From positions 23,102 to 49,860 of the forward strand of contig CAZTUO010000001.1 in assembly GCA_964616355.1 (NCBI GenBank): a DNA stretch of 26,759 bases, read 5' to 3'. The DNA comes from an uncultured Nitrospira sp. GTDB lineage: Bacteria; Nitrospirota; Nitrospiria; Nitrospirales; Nitrospiraceae. The stretch's first letter is position 1. Every line of letters begins with the position of its first letter. The notes beneath the pieces are model-generated. The model saw only the letters and a program-made list of their open reading frames with translations. It ran no database searches and was not told where the DNA came from. Positions 2,099 to 26,759 of the stretch are shown in pieces. The position numbers and the translations under genes are program-made.

Positions 2099-3091
2099 AT
2101 GGGGATGTTTGATCGGAACGAGGAGCCCGCCGTTGCCGCCGTGACTTGGACCGAAGGTGCACTGAAGCGCATGGAGCGCGCCCCCGCGTTCCTGCGTGGA
2201 ATGGTCAAGCGGCTTGCCGAGAAGAAGGCGCGCGAGCTGGGGTACGCGGAGATTACGGAGGAGATCCTCGACCAGTTCAAGAGCCAGATGATGGGCCGCA
2301 TGGGTGGCGAGGCCGGCCTGACCGCCGCGGCGGACCAGATGGCTAGGGGCCAACTCCCCTGGACAGCTGCCGCCCGGGAGCGGCTCGAGACAGTGCCGGA
2401 GTTCATGCGCGGCATGATCAAGCAAATCGCCGAAGAGCTGGCGCTCAAGGACGGCCACTTGGAAGTCAACGTCGAGCTCTTCGAAAAGGTCGAGGCGCTG
2501 GGCGATCTCCAGGAGCGTCCTGGCCCGCCGATGGAGTGGACCGACGAGGCCCGGGCCTTGCTCCAGAACAAGGTGCGGGAGGCTCCACCGATCGCGATGG
2601 AGTTTGTCCTCGACATGCTGCAACGGGACACAGAGGATCTGGCGCGGGAGCGGGGGCTCAGCCGCATCGATGAGGCCGCGTTCCGCGCTGTCTGGGAGGC
2701 CCCCCAAGAGCGGATCACGTGGACTGACGAAGCCTGGAAGCGACTCCAGACCTCTCCGGATTTTGTGCGCAGCGGGATCCGCAAGGCCGCCGAGCGCCGG
2801 GCCAGAAAAATGGGGCTCAAGGAGATTGACTCCGAGCACCTCACGCAGTTCCGGAACGAAGCGATGATGAAGGCGGTCAAACGGATCCGGAGCTTCGGGT
2901 ACCGGGAGCTGACCTTCGACGCGTTCGAAGACGCCATGGCGAAGGTCAAACGGCTTCAGGGCAACGAGCAGGCCGAGAAACGCCTGGCGGAGATCCGCGA
3001 ATACATGAAAAAGAAACCGGGGGTGGGCGTGCTTGGCGAAGAGCTCATGGAGCGGTTCCGCAAGTATCTGCGAGGCGAAGGGCCGCTGTAG
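2099..3091 (+). CDS. Protein of four tandem PCP_red-like (BchB/ChlB C-terminal type) helical domains, function unknown
   Basis: Four repeats start WTEGA, WTAAA, WTDEA, WTDEA. Repeats 1, 2 and 4 continue P-x-F-[LMV]-R-x-x-[VI]-[KR]..[AT]E..A...G...[IV]; repeat 3 is divergent. Family call is from pattern recall. Confidence 0.75.
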   Translation: MGMFDRNEEPAVAAVTWTEGALKRMERAPAFLRGMVKRLAEKKARELGYAEITEEILDQFKSQMMGRMGGEAGLTAAADQMARGQLPWTAAARERLETVPEFMRGMIKQIAEELALKDGHLEVNVELFEKVEALGDLQERPGPPMEWTDEARALLQNKVREAPPIAMEFVLDMLQRDTEDLARERGLSRIDEAAFRAVWEAPQERITWTDEAWKRLQTSPDFVRSGIRKAAERRARKMGLKEIDSEHLTQFRNEAMMKAVKRIRSFGYRELTFDAFEDAMAKVKRLQGNEQAEKRLAEIREYMKKKPGVGVLGEELMERFRKYLRGEGPL

Positions 3092-5755: not shown

Positions 5756-5817
5756 GGCCGATATCTTCATCAAGCCCTGCCGCAGGCGATGGTTGCTGCT
5801 TCAAAGGACCAGTAAGT

Positions 5818-6018
5818 GTGAGGACATTCCTCTGGTGGTTCGGCATCGGGTCGCTCACCACCCTCTCGGTGCTGATGGTACAGGGCGGTGTCCGCGACCT
5901 GATCTACGCCAGTCATCCGGCGGGGAGCGCCCAGGCCCTGCTCACCTTCACTATCACCATCGCGGGCGGAGGGCTGCTCGCCGGGTGCCTGGCGCTGATT
6001 ATGAATCGGCTCAGGTGA
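5818..6018 (+). CDS. Small membrane protein, 66 aa with two TM helices
   Basis: Two hydrophobic stretches; lies downstream of a good promoter and fills an otherwise empty interval. Confidence 0.6.
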   Translation: MRTFLWWFGIGSLTTLSVLMVQGGVRDLIYASHPAGSAQALLTFTITIAGGGLLAGCLALIMNRLR

Positions 6019-12330: not shown

Positions 12331-13151
12331 GATGGTCTCCCTCCCGGTGGGAGAACGACTTCCCGACGCTTCTCTGCAGCTTGGGTGACCGGCTGGGCCT
12401 CTGTCCCGATCGCGTCCAGAAGGGTGACTTCGGTCCAGGTCAGCCCGAAGACTTCTGCAAACCGACTGGTCAGCCGAGCGCGAACAGCGGCCATGTCCAC
12501 GGAATGTCCGAGCAGAGCGGCCATGGAGGTGACCGACACACCCGGGATCCCGCAGGGGACGATGCGGGCGAATGGCTCCAGGTCCACGGTCACGTTGAGC
12601 GCGAACCCGTGCATCGTGATCCCGCGGACAATCCGGACCCCCACCGCCGCGATCTTCGCGGGCTGGGAGTCTCCGACCCACACCCCCGGCAGGCCTTCCC
12701 TGCGACAACCGATGATGCCCCACTCATCCAGCGTCCGGATCACGGTCTCTTCAAGCATCCGGACATAGGCCTTCGGTCCCGGACAATAGTCCTGCAATCG
12801 GAGGATCGGGTAACCCACGAGTTGACCTGGTCCATGGTAGGTGATGGACCCGCCCCGCTCCACCCACACTACAGGATGACCACCGATGTGCGAGGGGACT
12901 GCCTCACCGTGCCAGTGGGCGGGTTGCCCCCGCCGCCCAACCGTGTAAACCGGGTCGTGCTCGAGCAGGAGTAGCGTGTCCGAACAGTGGCCCGCCGCTC
13001 GGGTCTCGACAAGACGGTGTTGGAGTGCTCTGGCGGTCTCATACGCGATCTGGCTGTGTTCCATCAAGGCAGCGGGGTGACGGGCGCGCCCGGTGGGCGC
13101 CGGAATCGGTTCCGTCAAAGGCCGCGTGGTGGGTCCAAGCATGAGACTCAC
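12327..13151 (-). CDS. lipB: Lipoyl(octanoyl) transferase; start uncertain
   Basis: LEHDPVYTVGRR, RGGSITYHGPGQLVGYP, KIAAVG, HGFALNV, IVPCG. Confidence 0.95.
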   Translation of the reverse strand: MSLMLGPTTRPLTEPIPAPTGRARHPAALMEHSQIAYETARALQHRLVETRAAGHCSDTLLLLEHDPVYTVGRRGQPAHWHGEAVPSHIGGHPVVWVERGGSITYHGPGQLVGYPILRLQDYCPGPKAYVRMLEETVIRTLDEWGIIGCRREGLPGVWVGDSQPAKIAAVGVRIVRGITMHGFALNVTVDLEPFARIVPCGIPGVSVTSMAALLGHSVDMAAVRARLTSRFAEVFGLTWTEVTLLDAIGTEAQPVTQAAEKRREVVLPPGGRPS

Positions 13152-22277: not shown

Positions 22278-22774
22278 ACATCGTCCTGATCGGCTACCGG
22301 GGAACCGGGAAGAGCAGCGTGGGGAAACTCTTGGCCGAGCGGCTTGGCCGGGAGCTCGTGTCCACCGATGAGGAGATCGTCCGGCGCACCACCCTGCCGA
22401 TCCCCGAGATCGTTAAACGGTTCGGCTGGGACTATTTCCGCGACCTGGAATCGCAGGTCTGCCGAGATCTGGCGGCCAAGGACGGCCTCATCATAGACAC
22501 GGGCGGCGGCGCCATCCTGCGGCAGGAGAACGTGGAGCGGCTGAAGGCGAACGGGCGGCTCTTCTGGCTGACGGCCGAGGTGAGCACGATCGCCCAGCGG
22601 ATCGCGGGGGATACCCAGCGGCCGTCGCTGACCGGGGCGAAAAGCTTTATCGAGGAGATCGAGGACGTGCTGCGGGAACGGCTGCCTAGGTACCGGGCGG
22701 CCGCGGACGACGTCATCCCGACGGACGGCCGGCCGCTGTCTGCGGTTGCGGAGGACATCCTCGCCAAGCTCTAG
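22274..22774 (+). CDS. aroK: Shikimate kinase
   Basis: P-loop GYRGTGKS, DTGGG, QRP; ATGA overlap with aroE. Confidence 0.95.
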   Translation: MNIVLIGYRGTGKSSVGKLLAERLGRELVSTDEEIVRRTTLPIPEIVKRFGWDYFRDLESQVCRDLAAKDGLIIDTGGGAILRQENVERLKANGRLFWLTAEVSTIAQRIAGDTQRPSLTGAKSFIEEIEDVLRERLPRYRAAADDVIPTDGRPLSAVAEDILAKL

Positions 22775-22787
22775 ACGGGCCCTCGTA

Positions 22788-22816
22788 TTGCAATGCCTGG
22801 GGGGCCATGCTATGCT
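22788..22816 (+). promoter_or_regulatory. Putative sigma70 promoter for the RRM gene
   Basis: TTGCAA (22788-22793), 17 nt, TATGCT (22811-22816) with extended -10 TGn. Confidence 0.7.
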
Positions 22817-23019
22817 GGTGAGCGCAATTCATCGCTGCGGGGCCGAGTGATGGAGAGCCGAGTGGAGAGGCCCTGATCGATGTTGCCTTGCGAGAGGAAG
22901 CTGGCCGGACAGTGTGAGTGACCTGATGGTGCTGCGTCGCGACGCGCCTTCGCGTCCCACCTCCGTCTCCCCACCCCTCTCCTCCAAGACAATGTCAAGA
23001 GCCGTGTAGGAGGTTAGCC

Positions 23020-23325
23020 GTGGGTACCAAATTGTATGTGGGCAGCCTGCCCTATTCCACCACCGAGCAGCAACTCAACGAGCTGTTCTCCCAGTATGGA
23101 ACGGTCCAGTCCGCGAAGGTGATCACCGACCGGTACACCGGACAGTCGCGGGGGTTCGGATTCGTCGAGATGGCGACGGGCGAGGAAGCCCAAAAGGCCA
23201 TCGCGGCCCTGAACGGGTCCACGCTGGGCGGCCGCACGCTGGTGGTCAACGAGGCTCGACCGCAGGAGAAGCGACCCTACGGCGGGGGTAGCGGAGGTGG
23301 CGGAGAGGGGAGAGATCGCTGGTAA
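23020..23325 (+). CDS. Single-RRM RNA-binding protein with a Gly-rich tail
   Basis: RNP2 LYVGSL, RNP1 RGFGFVEM, VNEARP; TAGGAGG SD. Confidence 0.96.
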   Translation: MGTKLYVGSLPYSTTEQQLNELFSQYGTVQSAKVITDRYTGQSRGFGFVEMATGEEAQKAIAALNGSTLGGRTLVVNEARPQEKRPYGGGSGGGGEGRDRW

Positions 23326-23362
23326 GTCCCACCGCGGACCAGAGTTTCCGCAGGCAATGTCG

Positions 23363-23397
23363 AGGGGGCCGAAGCTGAGCAGCGGCCCCTTTTGTTT
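23363..23397 (+). terminator. Intrinsic terminator after the RRM gene
   Basis: Stem GGGGCCG (23365-23371)/CGGCCCC (23383-23389) followed by TTTTGTTT. Confidence 0.8.
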
Positions 23398-23481
23398 GAA
23401 GGCTGACTGAGGCCCCCCTTCCTGGGCCGACACGATCTGGCTTGAGAAGCGTTCCAGCCTGGCGGCTGTCATCAGTCGTGT

Positions 23482-23558
23482 GCGCCCGTAGCTCAGTTGG
23501 ATAGAGCGTCGGGCTTCGAACCCGCAGGTCGCCCGTTCGAGTCGGGCCGGGCGCACCA
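23482..23558 (+). tRNA. tRNA-Arg(UCG), 77 nt, CCA encoded
   Basis: Acceptor GCGCCCG/CGGGCGC, D stem GCTC/GAGC with A20, anticodon TCG at 23516-23518, T arm GCCCG-TTCGAGT-CGGGC. There is one U:C mismatch at pair 27:43. Confidence 0.97.
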
Positions 23559-24740
23559 TAATGTTTCAAGCACTTCCGCATCGCCGCCGCGCCGCGCCGC
23601 GCCGGCCGGTTGCAGGGAGGTTGCAGATTCGGCCTCGGCCAAGGGGTCATCGAGTCGGTCGACGGCCTGGCGGTTCCCCCCGGGGATGAGATGCCCGTAG
23701 AGGTCGACCGTGACCTGGATCGAGGAGTGTCCCATCTGCTCCTTGACGTAGACCGGGCTTTCCCCTTGCTGCAGCAGCAGGCTCGCGAAGGTATGGCGGA
23801 GGTCATGGATGCGGATCTGGCGCAAGCCTGCCGCACGCAGGGCGGGATAGAACACGCGATGGCGGAGGTTGTCCGGGTCGAGGAGCCCGCCGGTTTCGCT
23901 ACAAAACACCCAGGGCGACATGGCCGCTCCGGTCGCCGCGGCCTCCAGTTCCCGCTCGGTGTAGAGGTCTTTCAACGTGCGCGTGAGGGCTTGCGAGAGG
24001 TCGACCCGCCGCACCTCGCCGCTCTTGGGCGTGGTGAGGTGCCCGTGGCTCCAGGACCGCTGCACCAAGAGGTAGCGGCTGCGCAGGTCGAGGTCCCCCC
24101 ATTGGAGGGCGAGCAGCTCGCCCAAGCGCAAGCCCGTCCGCACCGCGCAGAGAAACAGCGGGTAATACCGCGGGGCGTGCCGCTGAATGGTCCGCAAGAA
24201 CGCGGACACTTCCTCGCGCGTCAAGGGGTTCACCTTCCGCCGCTTCGAAATCCCCGGGAGGAAGCGTCCCGGCTTGAGGGCCACGTTGGTCGATACCAGG
24301 CCGTCCTCAAGCGCTTGGCTGAGCACGCTCGACAGCACGCGCACCGTATTCGCCACGGTCTTCGGAGCGAGGCCTCGGGTCAGTTGCTCCGTGACGAACG
24401 CCCGGACCTTGTCCCGCGTGATCGATCGCAAGGGGAGCGCGCCCAGGGCCGGGAGAATCCACTGCCCCAGGCGCTTGGCGTAATCCCGCGCCGTGTTGGG
24501 CTTGCGGACCTGGCGGATATGCTCCAGCCAGGCCGTCGCGTACTCCGCCAGCGTCGGGCTGGCCGGCTCGGCCGGAAAGGCGCCCTGCCCCAGGGCCAGC
24601 CGCGCGGCGATCTGTTGCGCCGCGCGGTGCGCGGCCTGCTTCCCCGCCGCGCCCACCCCGATCCGCTTGGCCTTCCGCTGGCCGCGGTGGGCGACGAACA
24701 CCCACCACGCCCCCTTCCATTCGCGCACCCGGACGCCCAT
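23493..24740 (-). CDS. Tyrosine integrase with N-terminal arm-binding and SAM-like domains
   Basis: Full catalytic set: TGLRLGE (R), TPKSG (K), HDLRH (H, R), MGH (H), DLYGH (Y). ATG at 24740 (MGVRVREWKGAWWV) is inferred. Confidence 0.95.
   Translation of the reverse strand: MGVRVREWKGAWWVFVAHRGQRKAKRIGVGAAGKQAAHRAAQQIAARLALGQGAFPAEPASPTLAEYATAWLEHIRQVRKPNTARDYAKRLGQWILPALGALPLRSITRDKVRAFVTEQLTRGLAPKTVANTVRVLSSVLSQALEDGLVSTNVALKPGRFLPGISKRRKVNPLTREEVSAFLRTIQRHAPRYYPLFLCAVRTGLRLGELLALQWGDLDLRSRYLLVQRSWSHGHLTTPKSGEVRRVDLSQALTRTLKDLYTERELEAAATGAAMSPWVFCSETGGLLDPDNLRHRVFYPALRAAGLRQIRIHDLRHTFASLLLQQGESPVYVKEQMGHSSIQVTVDLYGHLIPGGNRQAVDRLDDPLAEAESATSLQPAGAARRGGDAEVLETLWCARPDSNGRPAGSKPDALSN
23608..23626. 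repeat. Direct repeat GGTTGCAG x2, candidate integrase arm-type sites
   Basis: GGTTGCAG at 23608-23615 and 23619-23626 (11-bp period), about 50 bp from the tRNA end. Confidence 0.5.
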
Positions 24741-24753
24741 GCCTTTTTTGAGG

Positions 24754-25011
24754 TTACCGCTCGCCGGATCCCGGCCGGACTGCCGCGACGATCTCGTCGA
24801 CCACCCGGCTGAGGTCCTCGCGTCGAGGGTCGACACGATACTGTTCCATCCAGTGCTCAAAGGCTTCGCGCTTCACCAGTACCTTCTTCCCGATCCGGTA
24901 GTGCGGCAACGGATGCTGCGGGTCATGCAGCCGGTCTCGCAGCCACCGAATCGAGCACGAAGCATAGGCCGCGAGGGATTTGAGATCAAGGTATTCCTTG
25001 GAGGAGGACAT
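24754..25011 (-). CDS. Excisionase/recombination-directionality-factor-like winged HTH protein, 85 aa
   Basis: YLDLKSLAAYASCSIRWLRD..LPHYRIGKKVLVKREAFEHW fits the Xis/HTH_17 pattern; it ends 13 nt before the integrase start. Confidence 0.85.
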   Translation of the reverse strand: MSSSKEYLDLKSLAAYASCSIRWLRDRLHDPQHPLPHYRIGKKVLVKREAFEHWMEQYRVDPRREDLSRVVDEIVAAVRPGSGER

Positions 25012-25340
25012 CACGCGATGATGTGGACCAGCCACACCCCCTTGCGCGTCTCGATCCGCTCGACCTGATGCACGCCATGCTCCTGACAGACCGCCTCCCA
25101 GACCGCCCTCGCCGGCATCGTGGCGGGATACATCGTGGCGTACACCACGCGATGGAGGCCGCGGGCATCCAGCGACTCCCGCACCACCGCCGGGTCCCCC
25201 GCCGCCGTCCCGCGCGCCCGCGCTTTCCAGCGCGCGACGGCCTCCCGCAGGCCTGCGATCGTGCGCTCGCGCTTGGCCACCTCCCACTCCAGCGTCGCGG
25301 CGCGGCGCTGGTGCTCTTGGCACTCCGGGCACCCCATCAC
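25011..25340 (-). CDS. Hypothetical protein, 109 aa, N-terminal CxxC and coiled coil
   Basis: Start overlaps the upstream stop (GTGA) and its stop overlaps the xis start (TGATG); CPEC followed by a heptad-like helix. Confidence 0.7.
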   Translation of the reverse strand: MMGCPECQEHQRRAATLEWEVAKRERTIAGLREAVARWKARARGTAAGDPAVVRESLDARGLHRVVYATMYPATMPARAVWEAVCQEHGVHQVERIETRKGVWLVHIIA

Positions 25341-26269
25341 CGCACCCTCCCGAGGTACGCGGCGGTCACGCTCTCGCGCGAGTGCCCCAGGTCCTCCGCG
25401 ATCGTCATCCGGGCCACCGCGAGGCGGTCGCGACTGATCTGGTCCGTCTCCCCACCCCGCACCGGCGCGGGCGTGCCCGTCAGCTGCTCAAATCGCTCGG
25501 ATGCGTATTCGTGCCGCAGGCCGTGGCTCGTGATCCCGCGCGCCCGCGTGATCCCCTCCCGTTCGAGGACGTGGTAGTATTCGCGCCGGACCTGGGCGTA
25601 GGTCATCCCGTAGCGCGCCCCCTGGCCGAGGCTTTCGGCCCCGCTGGTGAGCGCCTTCGCCCGGTCCAGCGCGGCGCGTTGCTCAGGCGTCTCGATGCGC
25701 ACCACCCGATCCCGCCCCCCTTTCGTCCCGCGGTTCACATCTACGTATGATCCACGATCCGCGAGGTGCGGGCGGATCATGAGCGATTCCCGGACGCGCA
25801 AGCCGAATTCACGTTGCAGGCTCAGCGCCGCCGCGATGCGCGGATGCCGCTCCGCCAGCTGCGCGATCCGCTCCCGCGCGTCGATCCCCCGCGCCGACCA
25901 GCTCTTGTCCACACGCGCGGCGTACGTGCGCCGGGTCTCGGTCCGGTAGTCCCGTGCGATCTGGTCGACGAGGCCGGGCTTGCCGATCCACCCCGCGAAG
26001 GTGCGGAGCACACTCAGCCGATTCTGATATTCTGATCTACTCAGGTTCCGTTCGCGCCAGGCCTCGCAGAGCGCGCGGACATGCCGGCCGCCGAGGCTCC
26101 GCACGCTCGGCAGCTTGTACCCGAGCTCGCGAAGCTGCTTGAAGGCGGCGTACAGCACGTCGCTCCGCTTTTCCAGTGTCGCGGTACTCAAGACCCGCGC
26201 GCGATCATGCGAGATGCGGCCGTGGACGCGCAGCAGCGCCGCCAGCTCGCGTTTCCAGTCCGCTCCCAT
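25337..26269 (-). CDS. Second tyrosine-recombinase-family protein (Phage_int_SAM_2 + Integrase_1-like)
   Basis: FGLRVRES (R), GTKGGRDR (K), HGLRH (H, R), LGH (H), AAYLG (Y); N-terminal YQNRLSVLR SAM-like helix. ATG at 26269 is preferred over GTG at 26317. The Pfam assignment is from recall. Confidence 0.88.
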   Translation of the reverse strand: MGADWKRELAALLRVHGRISHDRARVLSTATLEKRSDVLYAAFKQLRELGYKLPSVRSLGGRHVRALCEAWRERNLSRSEYQNRLSVLRTFAGWIGKPGLVDQIARDYRTETRRTYAARVDKSWSARGIDARERIAQLAERHPRIAAALSLQREFGLRVRESLMIRPHLADRGSYVDVNRGTKGGRDRVVRIETPEQRAALDRAKALTSGAESLGQGARYGMTYAQVRREYYHVLEREGITRARGITSHGLRHEYASERFEQLTGTPAPVRGGETDQISRDRLAVARMTIAEDLGHSRESVTAAYLGRVR

Positions 26270-26759
26270 GATTTCGCCCTGACCGATCCCTCGCGCCGGC
26301 TCGCGATCGCCGCGCACAGGACAATTGCGCGCGATGGGGGTACGTGAATAGCTACGACCCCACTCGAGAGCGGTCCCCGCTCTACGAGTGCCCTCCTGCC
26401 CGGAGGGTGCTGGGTCTCCTTACTCCCGCGCCTGGCGTCACCGCGTCCGTGACGCTGCGCGCTGGGTGCAGCCTCTGCGCGATCGAGCCGTTACCCGTCT
26501 CGCACTCGCACAGGGCGACGTGTGCTCAGCTCGGCTTCTGAGCCTTCCCGCTCGCTTGATCGCGCGTCGCACTCACGATCAGCGTTTTCCCCCGATGCCG
26601 CCGCGTCCGGCCTGCCATCGCGGATTGCCACCCGGGCCGTTCGGGGGCGGGGAGTCCAGCGTCCGTCGCCGTGCTCGACGCACTGCCTGTCACGGATTGG
26701 CCTCACGCCCTGACGCTGCGACTCGCTCGCTCGCACACAGACGCGCTCGCGCGCGTTTC

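Follow-up and report, generated by a model that had tools for sequence, protein, structure and literature searches.

The question raised by this locus is why the gene of a tyrosine-recombinase-like protein should be preceded by nearly half a kilobase of hairpin-rich DNA. The gene, called YR2 here (25340-26269, minus strand), lies at the end of a stretch of 26,759 nucleotides from an uncultured Nitrospira sp. (assembly GCA_964616355.1, contig CAZTUO010000001.1, positions 23102-49860), hereafter referred to as the window (WIN); the contig, designated C1, ends exactly at the window end. The original prediction listed six stems at 26270-26759 and offered two readings, i.e., a DNA substrate or origin of transfer (oriT) for YR2, and a structured leader or non-coding RNA of the operon. 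The explanation favored here, with moderate confidence, is a ribozyme-released structured RNA domain of approximately 400 nt in an MpsA-type mobilization module, which would be the positional counterpart of the sgm-sRNA of Salmonella genomic island 1 (SGI1), with oriT just outside the window. Loci used for comparison are given L numbers; the close ones encode YR2 homologues of 61–84% identity, the closest named one belonging to Nitrospira sp. Kam-Ns4a, whose complete chromosome is L006.

Covarying helices upstream of YR2

The hairpin-rich region is the gene-proximal 490 nt of a spacer of 0.67–0.83 kb that stands upstream of every close YR2 homologue. The view that it holds no convincing open reading frame (ORF) has been borne out, as the region is non-coding and aligns wholly within the intergenic spacer of the homologues. 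The alternative that it is the 3′ end of a gene starting beyond the window is excluded by the gap runs between homologues, of which 10–19 per pair are not multiples of three, and by the lack of any Pfam match for the long GC-rich ORFs of the region. The six stems were found where they had been placed, and the coordinates of the GACCC/GGGTC closing pair, a 10-nt direct repeat, and an 8-nt inverted pair were likewise correct. Folding energy was only moderately better than that of dinucleotide shuffles (z = −1.96 on the plus strand and −2.80 on the minus strand), and the RNA defined by the ribozyme described below has a z of −1.99. With a GC content of 70% and a z of only approximately −2, folding energy is weak evidence alone, and the test therefore had to be comparative.

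The alignment used (A4) consists of six distinct Nitrospira-type sequences, in which RNAalifold predicted 102 pairs, 38 of them with compensatory changes. Paired cells amount to 82.4% in A4 and 74.8% in shuffles, 33 pairs are changed on both sides compared with 16.4 ± 2.8 in shuffles, and the covariation score is 0.271 against 0.06–0.09 for slid partners (0/500 in each case). The upstream regions of the homologues thus show compensatory pairing beyond both kinds of control, which is decisive support for the hairpin-rich stretch being real and conserved. In particular, stems 2, 3, and 4 and the three-way junction remain paired across five independent homologous elements by virtue of compensatory changes. 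The alifold energy is better on the sense strand (−91.1 vs. −82.2 and −56.1 vs. −50.3), GNRA loops are found on this strand, and the count of G-U versus A-C favors it when the structure is predicted there but is not decisive when the strands are folded separately.

Read along the minus strand, the first helical domain after the ribozyme cleavage site (26652-26724; helices 3–5 of A4) contains a conserved GCGUGAGGCCAAUCC block; helix 3 has changes on both sides in five of nine pairs, and the alignment of this part is less certain. A long-range helix, CCCCCGA...UCGGGGG, then surrounds a conserved internal region (26589-26647). It is also present in the single-sequence minimum free energy (MFE) fold, and it compensates between lineages as CUCCGGC/GCCGGAG, CUCGGC/GCCGAG, and CCCCCGA/UCGGGGG. 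The hairpin at 26554-26583, which corresponds to columns ~215–245 of A4 and to a hairpin of the MFE fold, is formed by stem 6 (TGATCG/CGATCA, 26557-26581); its position is conserved, while its sequence differs by lineage. Stem 5 (GCTCAG/CTGAGC, 26524-26543) is present in the window as a variable hairpin insert that cannot be aligned to the homologues, and L011 has a different, longer insert at this place.

A helix of 16 pairs that the original prediction did not list (26471-26519, helix 11) emerged from covariation, with changes on both sides in seven of its 16 pairs and 89.5% of its cells paired. Helix 12 (26425-26466) encloses stem 4 (GCGUCAC/GUGACGC, 26435-26455; helix 13), in which five of seven pairs are changed on both sides and whose loop, GGACGCG, is conserved in WIN, L008–L011, and L006. 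The three-way junction (26356-26416) is composed of the closing helix (G)ACCC/GGGU(C), stem 3 (CCCUCC/GGAGGG, 26391-26407), and the 13-bp stem 2 (26361-26390); its helices 14–17 are 90–100% paired, with changes on both sides in 10 of 22 pairs.

The junction is followed immediately on its 3′ side by the single-stranded 14-nt motif GUAGCUAUUCACGU (26342-26355, minus strand), which is the one AU-rich segment in the region and of which GUAsCUAyUCACG is invariant in all Nitrospira-type loci. The distance from the motif to the YR2 start codon is 0–145 nt across loci, with a 72-nt spacer in the window; the motif ends in CAC|GUG, and this GUG is the start codon of YR2 in L160 (874-888) and L162 (5256-5272), with 30–100 nt between motif and start in other lineages. 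Stem 1 (26306-26335) lies between motif and start codon; it is present as predicted but is specific to the WIN/L008–L011 lineage, shows no compensatory change, and is absent from L005 and L006. The direct repeat and the inverted pair, although present, have no comparative support, and the inverted pair has an A-C mismatch in L008–L010.

Several further candidates were rejected or left no trace. RNAalifold proposed that the new 5′ end (UGUG) pairs at long range with the motif (CACG); this was rejected, the 5′ end covarying with stem I of the ribozyme and not with the invariant motif. No consistent complement partner for the motif was found. A promoter reading of the motif (sigma-70, sigma-54, or ECF) was also rejected: the match to the hexamers is poor, a covarying hairpin has the GGAAAC box as its loop, and no promoter came out of the scan. 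A metagenome-wide scan with a 17-nt motif gave 74 loci, all of them chance matches except one, which is a copy of L005. The search for complementarity between the RNA and att sites returned 8-mers only, at chance level. The int-alpA motif, which had been suggested earlier, found no covariance-model match at E ≤ 10 in 22500-26759, and even at permissive thresholds neither the window nor the homologous loci match any Rfam family, apart from one weak hammerhead score at L012.

The hammerhead ribozyme at the contig end

Of a canonical type I hammerhead ribozyme, the contig end has left only the 3′ half, on the minus strand at 26734-26759. It comprises G12-A13-A14 (26759-26757), stem III with the strands ACGCGC/GCGCGU and a GCGA loop (26756-26741), C17 (26740), and the 3′ strand of stem I, UGUGUG (26739-26734); the sequence from 26759 to 26740, GAA-ACGCGC-gcga-GCGCGU-C, has the core GAA, the A15.1-U16.1 pair, and C17 after GU. 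The ribozyme had been invisible in the original prediction because half of it is missing from the window. Complete type I hammerheads are found at the homologous place in L009, L011, L006, L005, and L162, with all core nucleotides, i.e., CUGAnGA, G10.1-C11.1, GAA, A15.1/C15.2...G16.2/U16.1, and the GUC cleavage triplet. In the alignment of homologues, CUGAUGAG...CGAAAC stands upstream of the start point of the window, and the CUGAnGA half with G10.1-C11.1, which for the window is beyond the contig end, is invariant in the five homologues. All three stems covary: the open stem I, which gives the type I order, as ACACA/UGUGU, GCCACC/GGUGGC, and AGGACC/GGUCCU; stem II as GCCCC/GGGGC and GCCAC/GUGGC; and stem III as CUCGC/GCGGG, CCGC/GCGG, and CGCGC/GCGCG. 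Self-cleavage is predicted between 26740 and 26739, giving an RNA with a 5′-OH from 26739. Since the hammerhead lies on the sense strand, the functional strand is that of YR2.

A hammerhead descriptor gave no match in 7.6 Mb (both strands) of the genome from which the window comes, and it recovered a ribozyme of the same style (CUGAnGAGCCCC...GGGGCGAAAC) in 25 IMG/VR contigs, often several per contig. These contigs (L169–L193, e.g., L170:11649-13181) carry up to four type I hammerheads each, and one near-identical ribozyme recurs in approximately 20 different contigs. Bacterial hammerheads are known near integrase genes, and for those of prophages a role in dividing polycistronic RNAs into gene-length mRNAs has been suggested (Perreault 2011; PMC3088659). 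The ribozyme described here shares with the type I hammerheads of prophages and integrase neighborhoods (RF00163) the core, the GUC triplet, and three covarying stems, and it is likewise found between genes, beside those of recombinases, in the sense orientation of a polycistronic unit. Unlike them, it is surrounded by a conserved non-coding RNA region, where it marks the passage from an oriT-like to an RNA-like part rather than simply separating two genes, and the window has only its 3′ half. In L160, whose YR2 is 71% identical, there is no hammerhead, and an AT-rich promoter-like TTGACA-17-TAGTAG (553-585) is located approximately 300 nt upstream of the gene.

YR2, the SGI1 comparison, and the surrounding element

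YR2 contains the Pfam domains PF12835 and PF12834, and its catalytic set of R158, K183, H249, R252, H296, and Y305 is invariant or nearly so among 30 homologues. Its AlphaFold2 model (pLDDT 88.9) has the two-domain fold of lambda Int/Xer/Cre, and lambda Int 75-356, Cre, and XerH align with the whole of it. The only "phage" match of the family is L194 (OR851053.1, 3144 bp), which comes from a Salmonella Kentucky sample and was submitted under the name "Salmonella phage S.Kent 1-2-1". It was identified as the mobilization region of SGI1 (mobSGI1) because the published landmarks and gene geometry match: the end of the UvrD-like S023, the P5 promoter ttgacg-16-taatat, and the oriT inverted repeats at the published offsets, together with ORFs for a 321-aa PF12835 protein (1528-2493) and a 99-aa MpsB-like protein. 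This entry is, judging from its landmarks, probably island DNA and not phage DNA. Its MpsA ORF matches YR2 at 33% over 184 aa in BLASTP (E = 1e-17), and the YR2 family profile matches it over 260 columns in hhalign (99.6%, E = 1.8e-23). By sequence, YR2 is therefore a homologue of SGI1-type MpsA, the proposed atypical relaxase of that island (PMC6414798).

MpsA, TcpM, and MobK are members of the MOB_M relaxases, which are found in small mobilizable islands and have recently been reported as the commonest among chromosomal relaxases. Their genes adjoin integrases, with oriT upstream of the relaxase gene (bioRxiv 10.64898/2026.01.13.699239), and the three named members were described as having neither a core-binding nor an arm-binding domain (PMC8152469). 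YR2 resembles them in the R-K-H-R-H-Y set, in being adjacent to an integrase gene in a small mobilizable island, and in having a candidate oriT upstream; it differs in its core-binding domain, and its membership is based on homology to MpsA and not on a MOB_M profile. A literature search on PF12835 and on integrase-linked RNA motifs gave nothing specific until the relaxase literature was reached. Homologues with PF12835 occur on 216 plasmids and are almost absent from phages; the plasmid hosts include Burkholderia, Paraburkholderia, Acinetobacter, Cupriavidus, and Aeromonas (e.g., NZ_CP125298.1:270354-271283).

In SGI1, the order upstream of mpsA is a promoter, oriT (125 bp, with IR3-IR2-IR1), and the sgm-sRNA core (PMC6414798; PMC9299015). 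The sgm-sRNA is the 3′ part of a primary RNA of 650–700 nt that is shortened by successive cleavages to species of 330–450 nt; its core, located between oriT and mpsA, is essential for transfer and acts in trans, not via expression of mpsAB (PMC9299015). As YR2 is a homologue of MpsA and the non-coding region upstream of mpsA in SGI1 holds both an oriT and an essential small RNA, both readings of the original prediction suit an MpsA-type system; the part within the window, though, sits at the position of the RNA and not at that of oriT, since it is downstream of the sense hammerhead and directly before the gene, while the hairpin resembling IR3 is outside. The likeness to mobSGI1 (Kiss 2019, PMC6414798; Nagy 2021, PMC9299015) includes an MpsA-type protein behind 0.7–1 kb of non-coding DNA, a distal GC-rich block of inverted repeats whose main hairpin shares UCUCUGU/ACAGAGA, a gene-proximal structured domain of 280–400 nt on the strand of the gene, with maturation by cleavage predicted here, and an integrative mobilizable element with its own integrase and excisionase. 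Here, the distance from the ribozyme cut to the motif is approximately 370–440 nt, and the hammerhead of the Nitrospira lineage sits at a boundary matching the one where the 5′ end of the SGI1 RNA is made. Unlike in SGI1, this 5′ end is predicted to arise by a hammerhead and not by host RNases, the host belongs to Nitrospirota, and the element is approximately 7 kb with a primase and a helicase.

The distal hairpin, gcACUCUCUGU...ACAGAGAGUgc, is found approximately 250 nt beyond the window end in homologues. It occurs once per locus in 27 loci, 470–1340 nt upstream of the YR2 genes, and shares UCUCUGU/ACAGAGA with IR3 of the SGI1 oriT. There is none in the 3.8-Mb genome of the window itself, whose assembly is interrupted between contigs C186 and C1 at the place of the hairpin. 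The oriT probably consists of this conserved IR3-like hairpin and the inverted repeats that follow it, approximately 250 nt upstream in that gap.

On the minus strand, the hairpin region and YR2 are followed by a 109-aa ORF (25011-25340), an excisionase-like HTH_17 gene (24754-25017), the integrase gene YR1 (23600-24743), and tRNA-Arg(tcg), which itself lies on the plus strand (23482-23558) and is the attachment end of the element. The genome is a 629-contig assembly of 65–66% GC, broken on both sides of the most hairpin-rich 350–400 nt (the C186/C1 gap). The missing upstream half of the element is found on C186 (4834-6568), with a 196-aa homologue (minus strand), the C-terminus of a helicase, a 108-aa ORF, and a 92-aa ORF running off the contig end. 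The order in L005, L006, L011, and L012 is a helicase-type ORF (complete in L005 and L006, approximately 455 aa), two small ORFs, a spacer of 668–830 nt, and YR2; the upstream genes of the element encode a zinc-finger (CHC2) primase and a helicase. Downstream of YR2, L005, L006, and L008 have an ORF of approximately 95 aa, the HTH_17 gene, and the integrase gene, which is the gene order of the window, and the shorter contigs L009–L012 end after the ORF that follows YR2.

In L006, the element occupies the same tRNA-Arg beside the same host genes as in the window; a group II intron (RF02003, RF00029, and a reverse transcriptase ORF; L006:1996-3957, minus strand) is located just outside its left part. 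In L005, the element lies in tRNA-Lys(ttt) between 47-bp direct repeats (5779-5825 and 12672-12718) that equal the 3′ half of the tRNA; it measures 6.9 kb and has a ParE-type toxin pair at its far end. The element is rare in Nitrospirota, as judged from a DNA search of 60 relatives and a protein search of 400 genomes of the phylum. As part of the overall explanation, and with the same moderate confidence, the window is taken to end inside the mobilization module of an integrative mobilizable element of approximately 7 kb at tRNA-Arg.

In the wider family, YR2 relatives are encoded at 72 loci, mostly in Beta- and Gammaproteobacteria, according to an alignment-based scan; a scan of genome contigs with the single YR2 protein had given no match. 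Relatives at 38–53% identity have upstream non-coding regions of 0.5–1.3 kb with a multi-helix 3′ core and GNRA loops, and in 20 proteobacterial loci the equivalent position, the end of the core, is taken by G[UC]hAAC[AG]yUCAmGU, a related motif. The proteobacterial core also covaries: 91.1% is paired, compared with 81.9% in shuffles, and 31 pairs are changed on both sides, compared with 12.1 (0/500 shuffles). A covariance model built for it (R1) matched one orphan fragment and 17 loci, and in each of these loci the match stands immediately 5′ of the YR2 gene. In both phyla, the region begins at its 5′ end with the distal hairpin, which has the invariant base gcACUCUyU...ArAGAGUgc and a variable apex of 6–90 nt; L160 has an apical insert of 85 nt. 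The middle of the spacer is dispensable in some loci (L038 and L028), and in L166 and L167 the non-coding region is present without primase or helicase neighbors.

Distant relatives, including Paraburkholderia/Caballeronia chromosomal loci (L040–L050 and L074), have neither the 5′ hairpin nor the 3′ motif, and the relatives of the Paraburkholderia/Caballeronia plasmid clade may work differently. L167 also carries an orphan partial copy (2470-3073), i.e., the 5′ hairpin and the first ~100 nt of the 3′ core followed by unrelated sequence, 7 kb upstream of the complete copy and in the same orientation, with toxin–antitoxin genes between them. In L029, an sRNA-Xcc1 (RF02221; 4258-4340, minus strand; 72 bits, above gathering) is located 1.7 kb upstream of the YR2 homologue.

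Weighing the explanations

Under the favored explanation, the module would be laid out as in mobSGI1, with the non-coding region followed by the MpsA-type relaxase-like YR2 and then by a small ORF, xis, and int. Transcripts of the YR2 strand would run into the region, probably by read-through from the primase and helicase genes ahead of it, which is proposed because no sigma-70 promoter and no intrinsic terminator were seen in a scan of 24700-26759. The hammerhead would cut this transcript at the predicted site, and the 3′ product with its 5′-OH would consist of a multi-helix domain of approximately 400 nt (26739-26342), the terminal 14-nt motif, the 72-nt spacer, and the YR2 coding sequence. 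The domain, at the position and on the strand of the sgm-sRNA core, would be an RNA factor needed together with the relaxase for conjugative mobilization, and the ribozyme would replace 5′ maturation by RNases.

A number of observations weigh against this explanation. Only five to six independent Nitrospira-type sequences exist, and hairpin covariation alone cannot separate an RNA from a folded single strand of DNA, a matter on which the G-U count is not decisive either. The hammerhead descriptor has no match in approximately 70 proteobacterial YR2 loci; Rfam RF00163 scores L012:1105-1168 at 18.4 bits, below the gathering threshold of 34, and was not reported for L005, L006, and L162, the long loops of stem II probably costing the score. 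Homology to sgm-sRNA was not found: model R1 finds nothing in L194, there are no alignable blocks, and R1 detects neither the Nitrospira type nor L194/SGI1. The 109-aa ORF shows no similarity to the 99-aa MpsB-like ORF of L194 (E = 1.4), and YR2 retains an N-terminal core-binding-like domain (PF12834, residues 44–113), unlike the published description of MOB_M.

One alternative, which we regard as unlikely, is that the domain acts only in cis as a 5′ leader. The structured leader with its 5′-OH would set the stability or translation of YR2, the 109-aa ORF, xis, and int, and the ribozyme would separate the recombination and mobilization genes from the replication genes on one transcript, with no role in trans. 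This agrees with the constant position of the domain directly 5′ of the YR2 gene, with a motif near the start codon, the two being contiguous in L160 and L162, with an operon that has no promoter of its own, and with the gene-length mRNAs that prophage hammerheads are thought to make (PMC3088659); the promoter-like sequence of L160, standing where others carry the ribozyme, points the same way. However, in SGI1, the sole relative that has been studied, the RNA is trans-acting and mpsAB expression is independent of it (PMC9299015), a covarying structure of 400–800 nt far exceeds the usual stability elements, and the ribosome-binding region is not sequestered in the folds.

That the hairpins act as DNA, either as an oriT (or part of one) nicked by YR2 or as a folded single-strand substrate like integron attC or CTX attP, with the transcript being incidental, appears rather improbable. 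In its favor, folded single strands are known substrates of tyrosine recombinases, the family of YR2 is one of relaxase-like recombinases, upstream of mpsA SGI1 has its oriT in the form of a GC-rich array of inverted repeats, and covariation is equally compatible with DNA hairpins. Yet the SGI1 oriT is the distal block and the gene-proximal one is the RNA core, and the IR3-like hairpin is outside the window. A self-cleaving ribozyme on the sense strand makes sense only as RNA, the GNRA tetraloops and variable-length apical inserts are RNA-like, and the middle part of the spacer can be dispensed with in L038 and L028.

A replication origin or a single-strand initiation signal recognized by the CHC2 primase and the helicase is very improbable. 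Satellite-like elements often have their origin beside rep genes, and genes for a zinc-finger primase and a helicase do lie upstream; but no iterons and no AT-rich unwinding element were found in the region, with its GC content of 70%, and it travels with YR2 and not with the helicase (L166 and L167). Functionless chance pairing in a GC-rich spacer, to which a single-sequence z of only approximately −2 lends itself, is scarcely credible, being contradicted by the covariation controls, the conservation across phyla, and the ribozyme.

Structured RNAs beside the genes of mobile elements are known from other systems as well. The Rfam families int-alpA, STAXI, and C4/P4 CI RNA are likewise located beside integrase or excisionase genes, and the P4 CI RNA is also processed from an operon leader; unlike these, the RNA described here is much larger and has no family match. 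The bridge RNA of IS110 is similarly structured and encoded in non-coding DNA of a mobile element, 5′ of the recombinase gene, but the enzyme there is of the DEDD type and here of the tyrosine type, and neither programmable internal loops nor target complementarity were found here. The attC sites of integrons and the attP of CTX also have conserved hairpins with variable apices beside a tyrosine recombinase gene; they differ from the present region, which occurs in one copy per element without a cassette array and has a ribozyme on the same strand and GNRA loops.

A wider conjecture, which is only tentative, is that PF12835 (MpsA-type) relaxases, from those of Nitrospirota to those of Beta- and Gammaproteobacteria, share a large structured RNA class, of which sgm-sRNA would be a diverged member. 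The RNA would be an obligate subunit of a ribonucleoprotein relaxosome, and that of Nitrospira would mature itself via the hammerhead without host RNases. If the structured region is the same kind of factor as sgm-sRNA, the covarying helices, the invariant motif, and the oriT-like hairpin would provide a structure model to guide mutagenesis, a ribozyme exactly at the boundary of oriT and RNA would offer a clean handle on RNA maturation, and the requirement for an RNA would be a general property of the MpsA-type/MOB_M relaxase family across phyla. The "integrase domain-containing" (PF12835) proteins of hundreds of plasmids and islands are probably mobilization enzymes.

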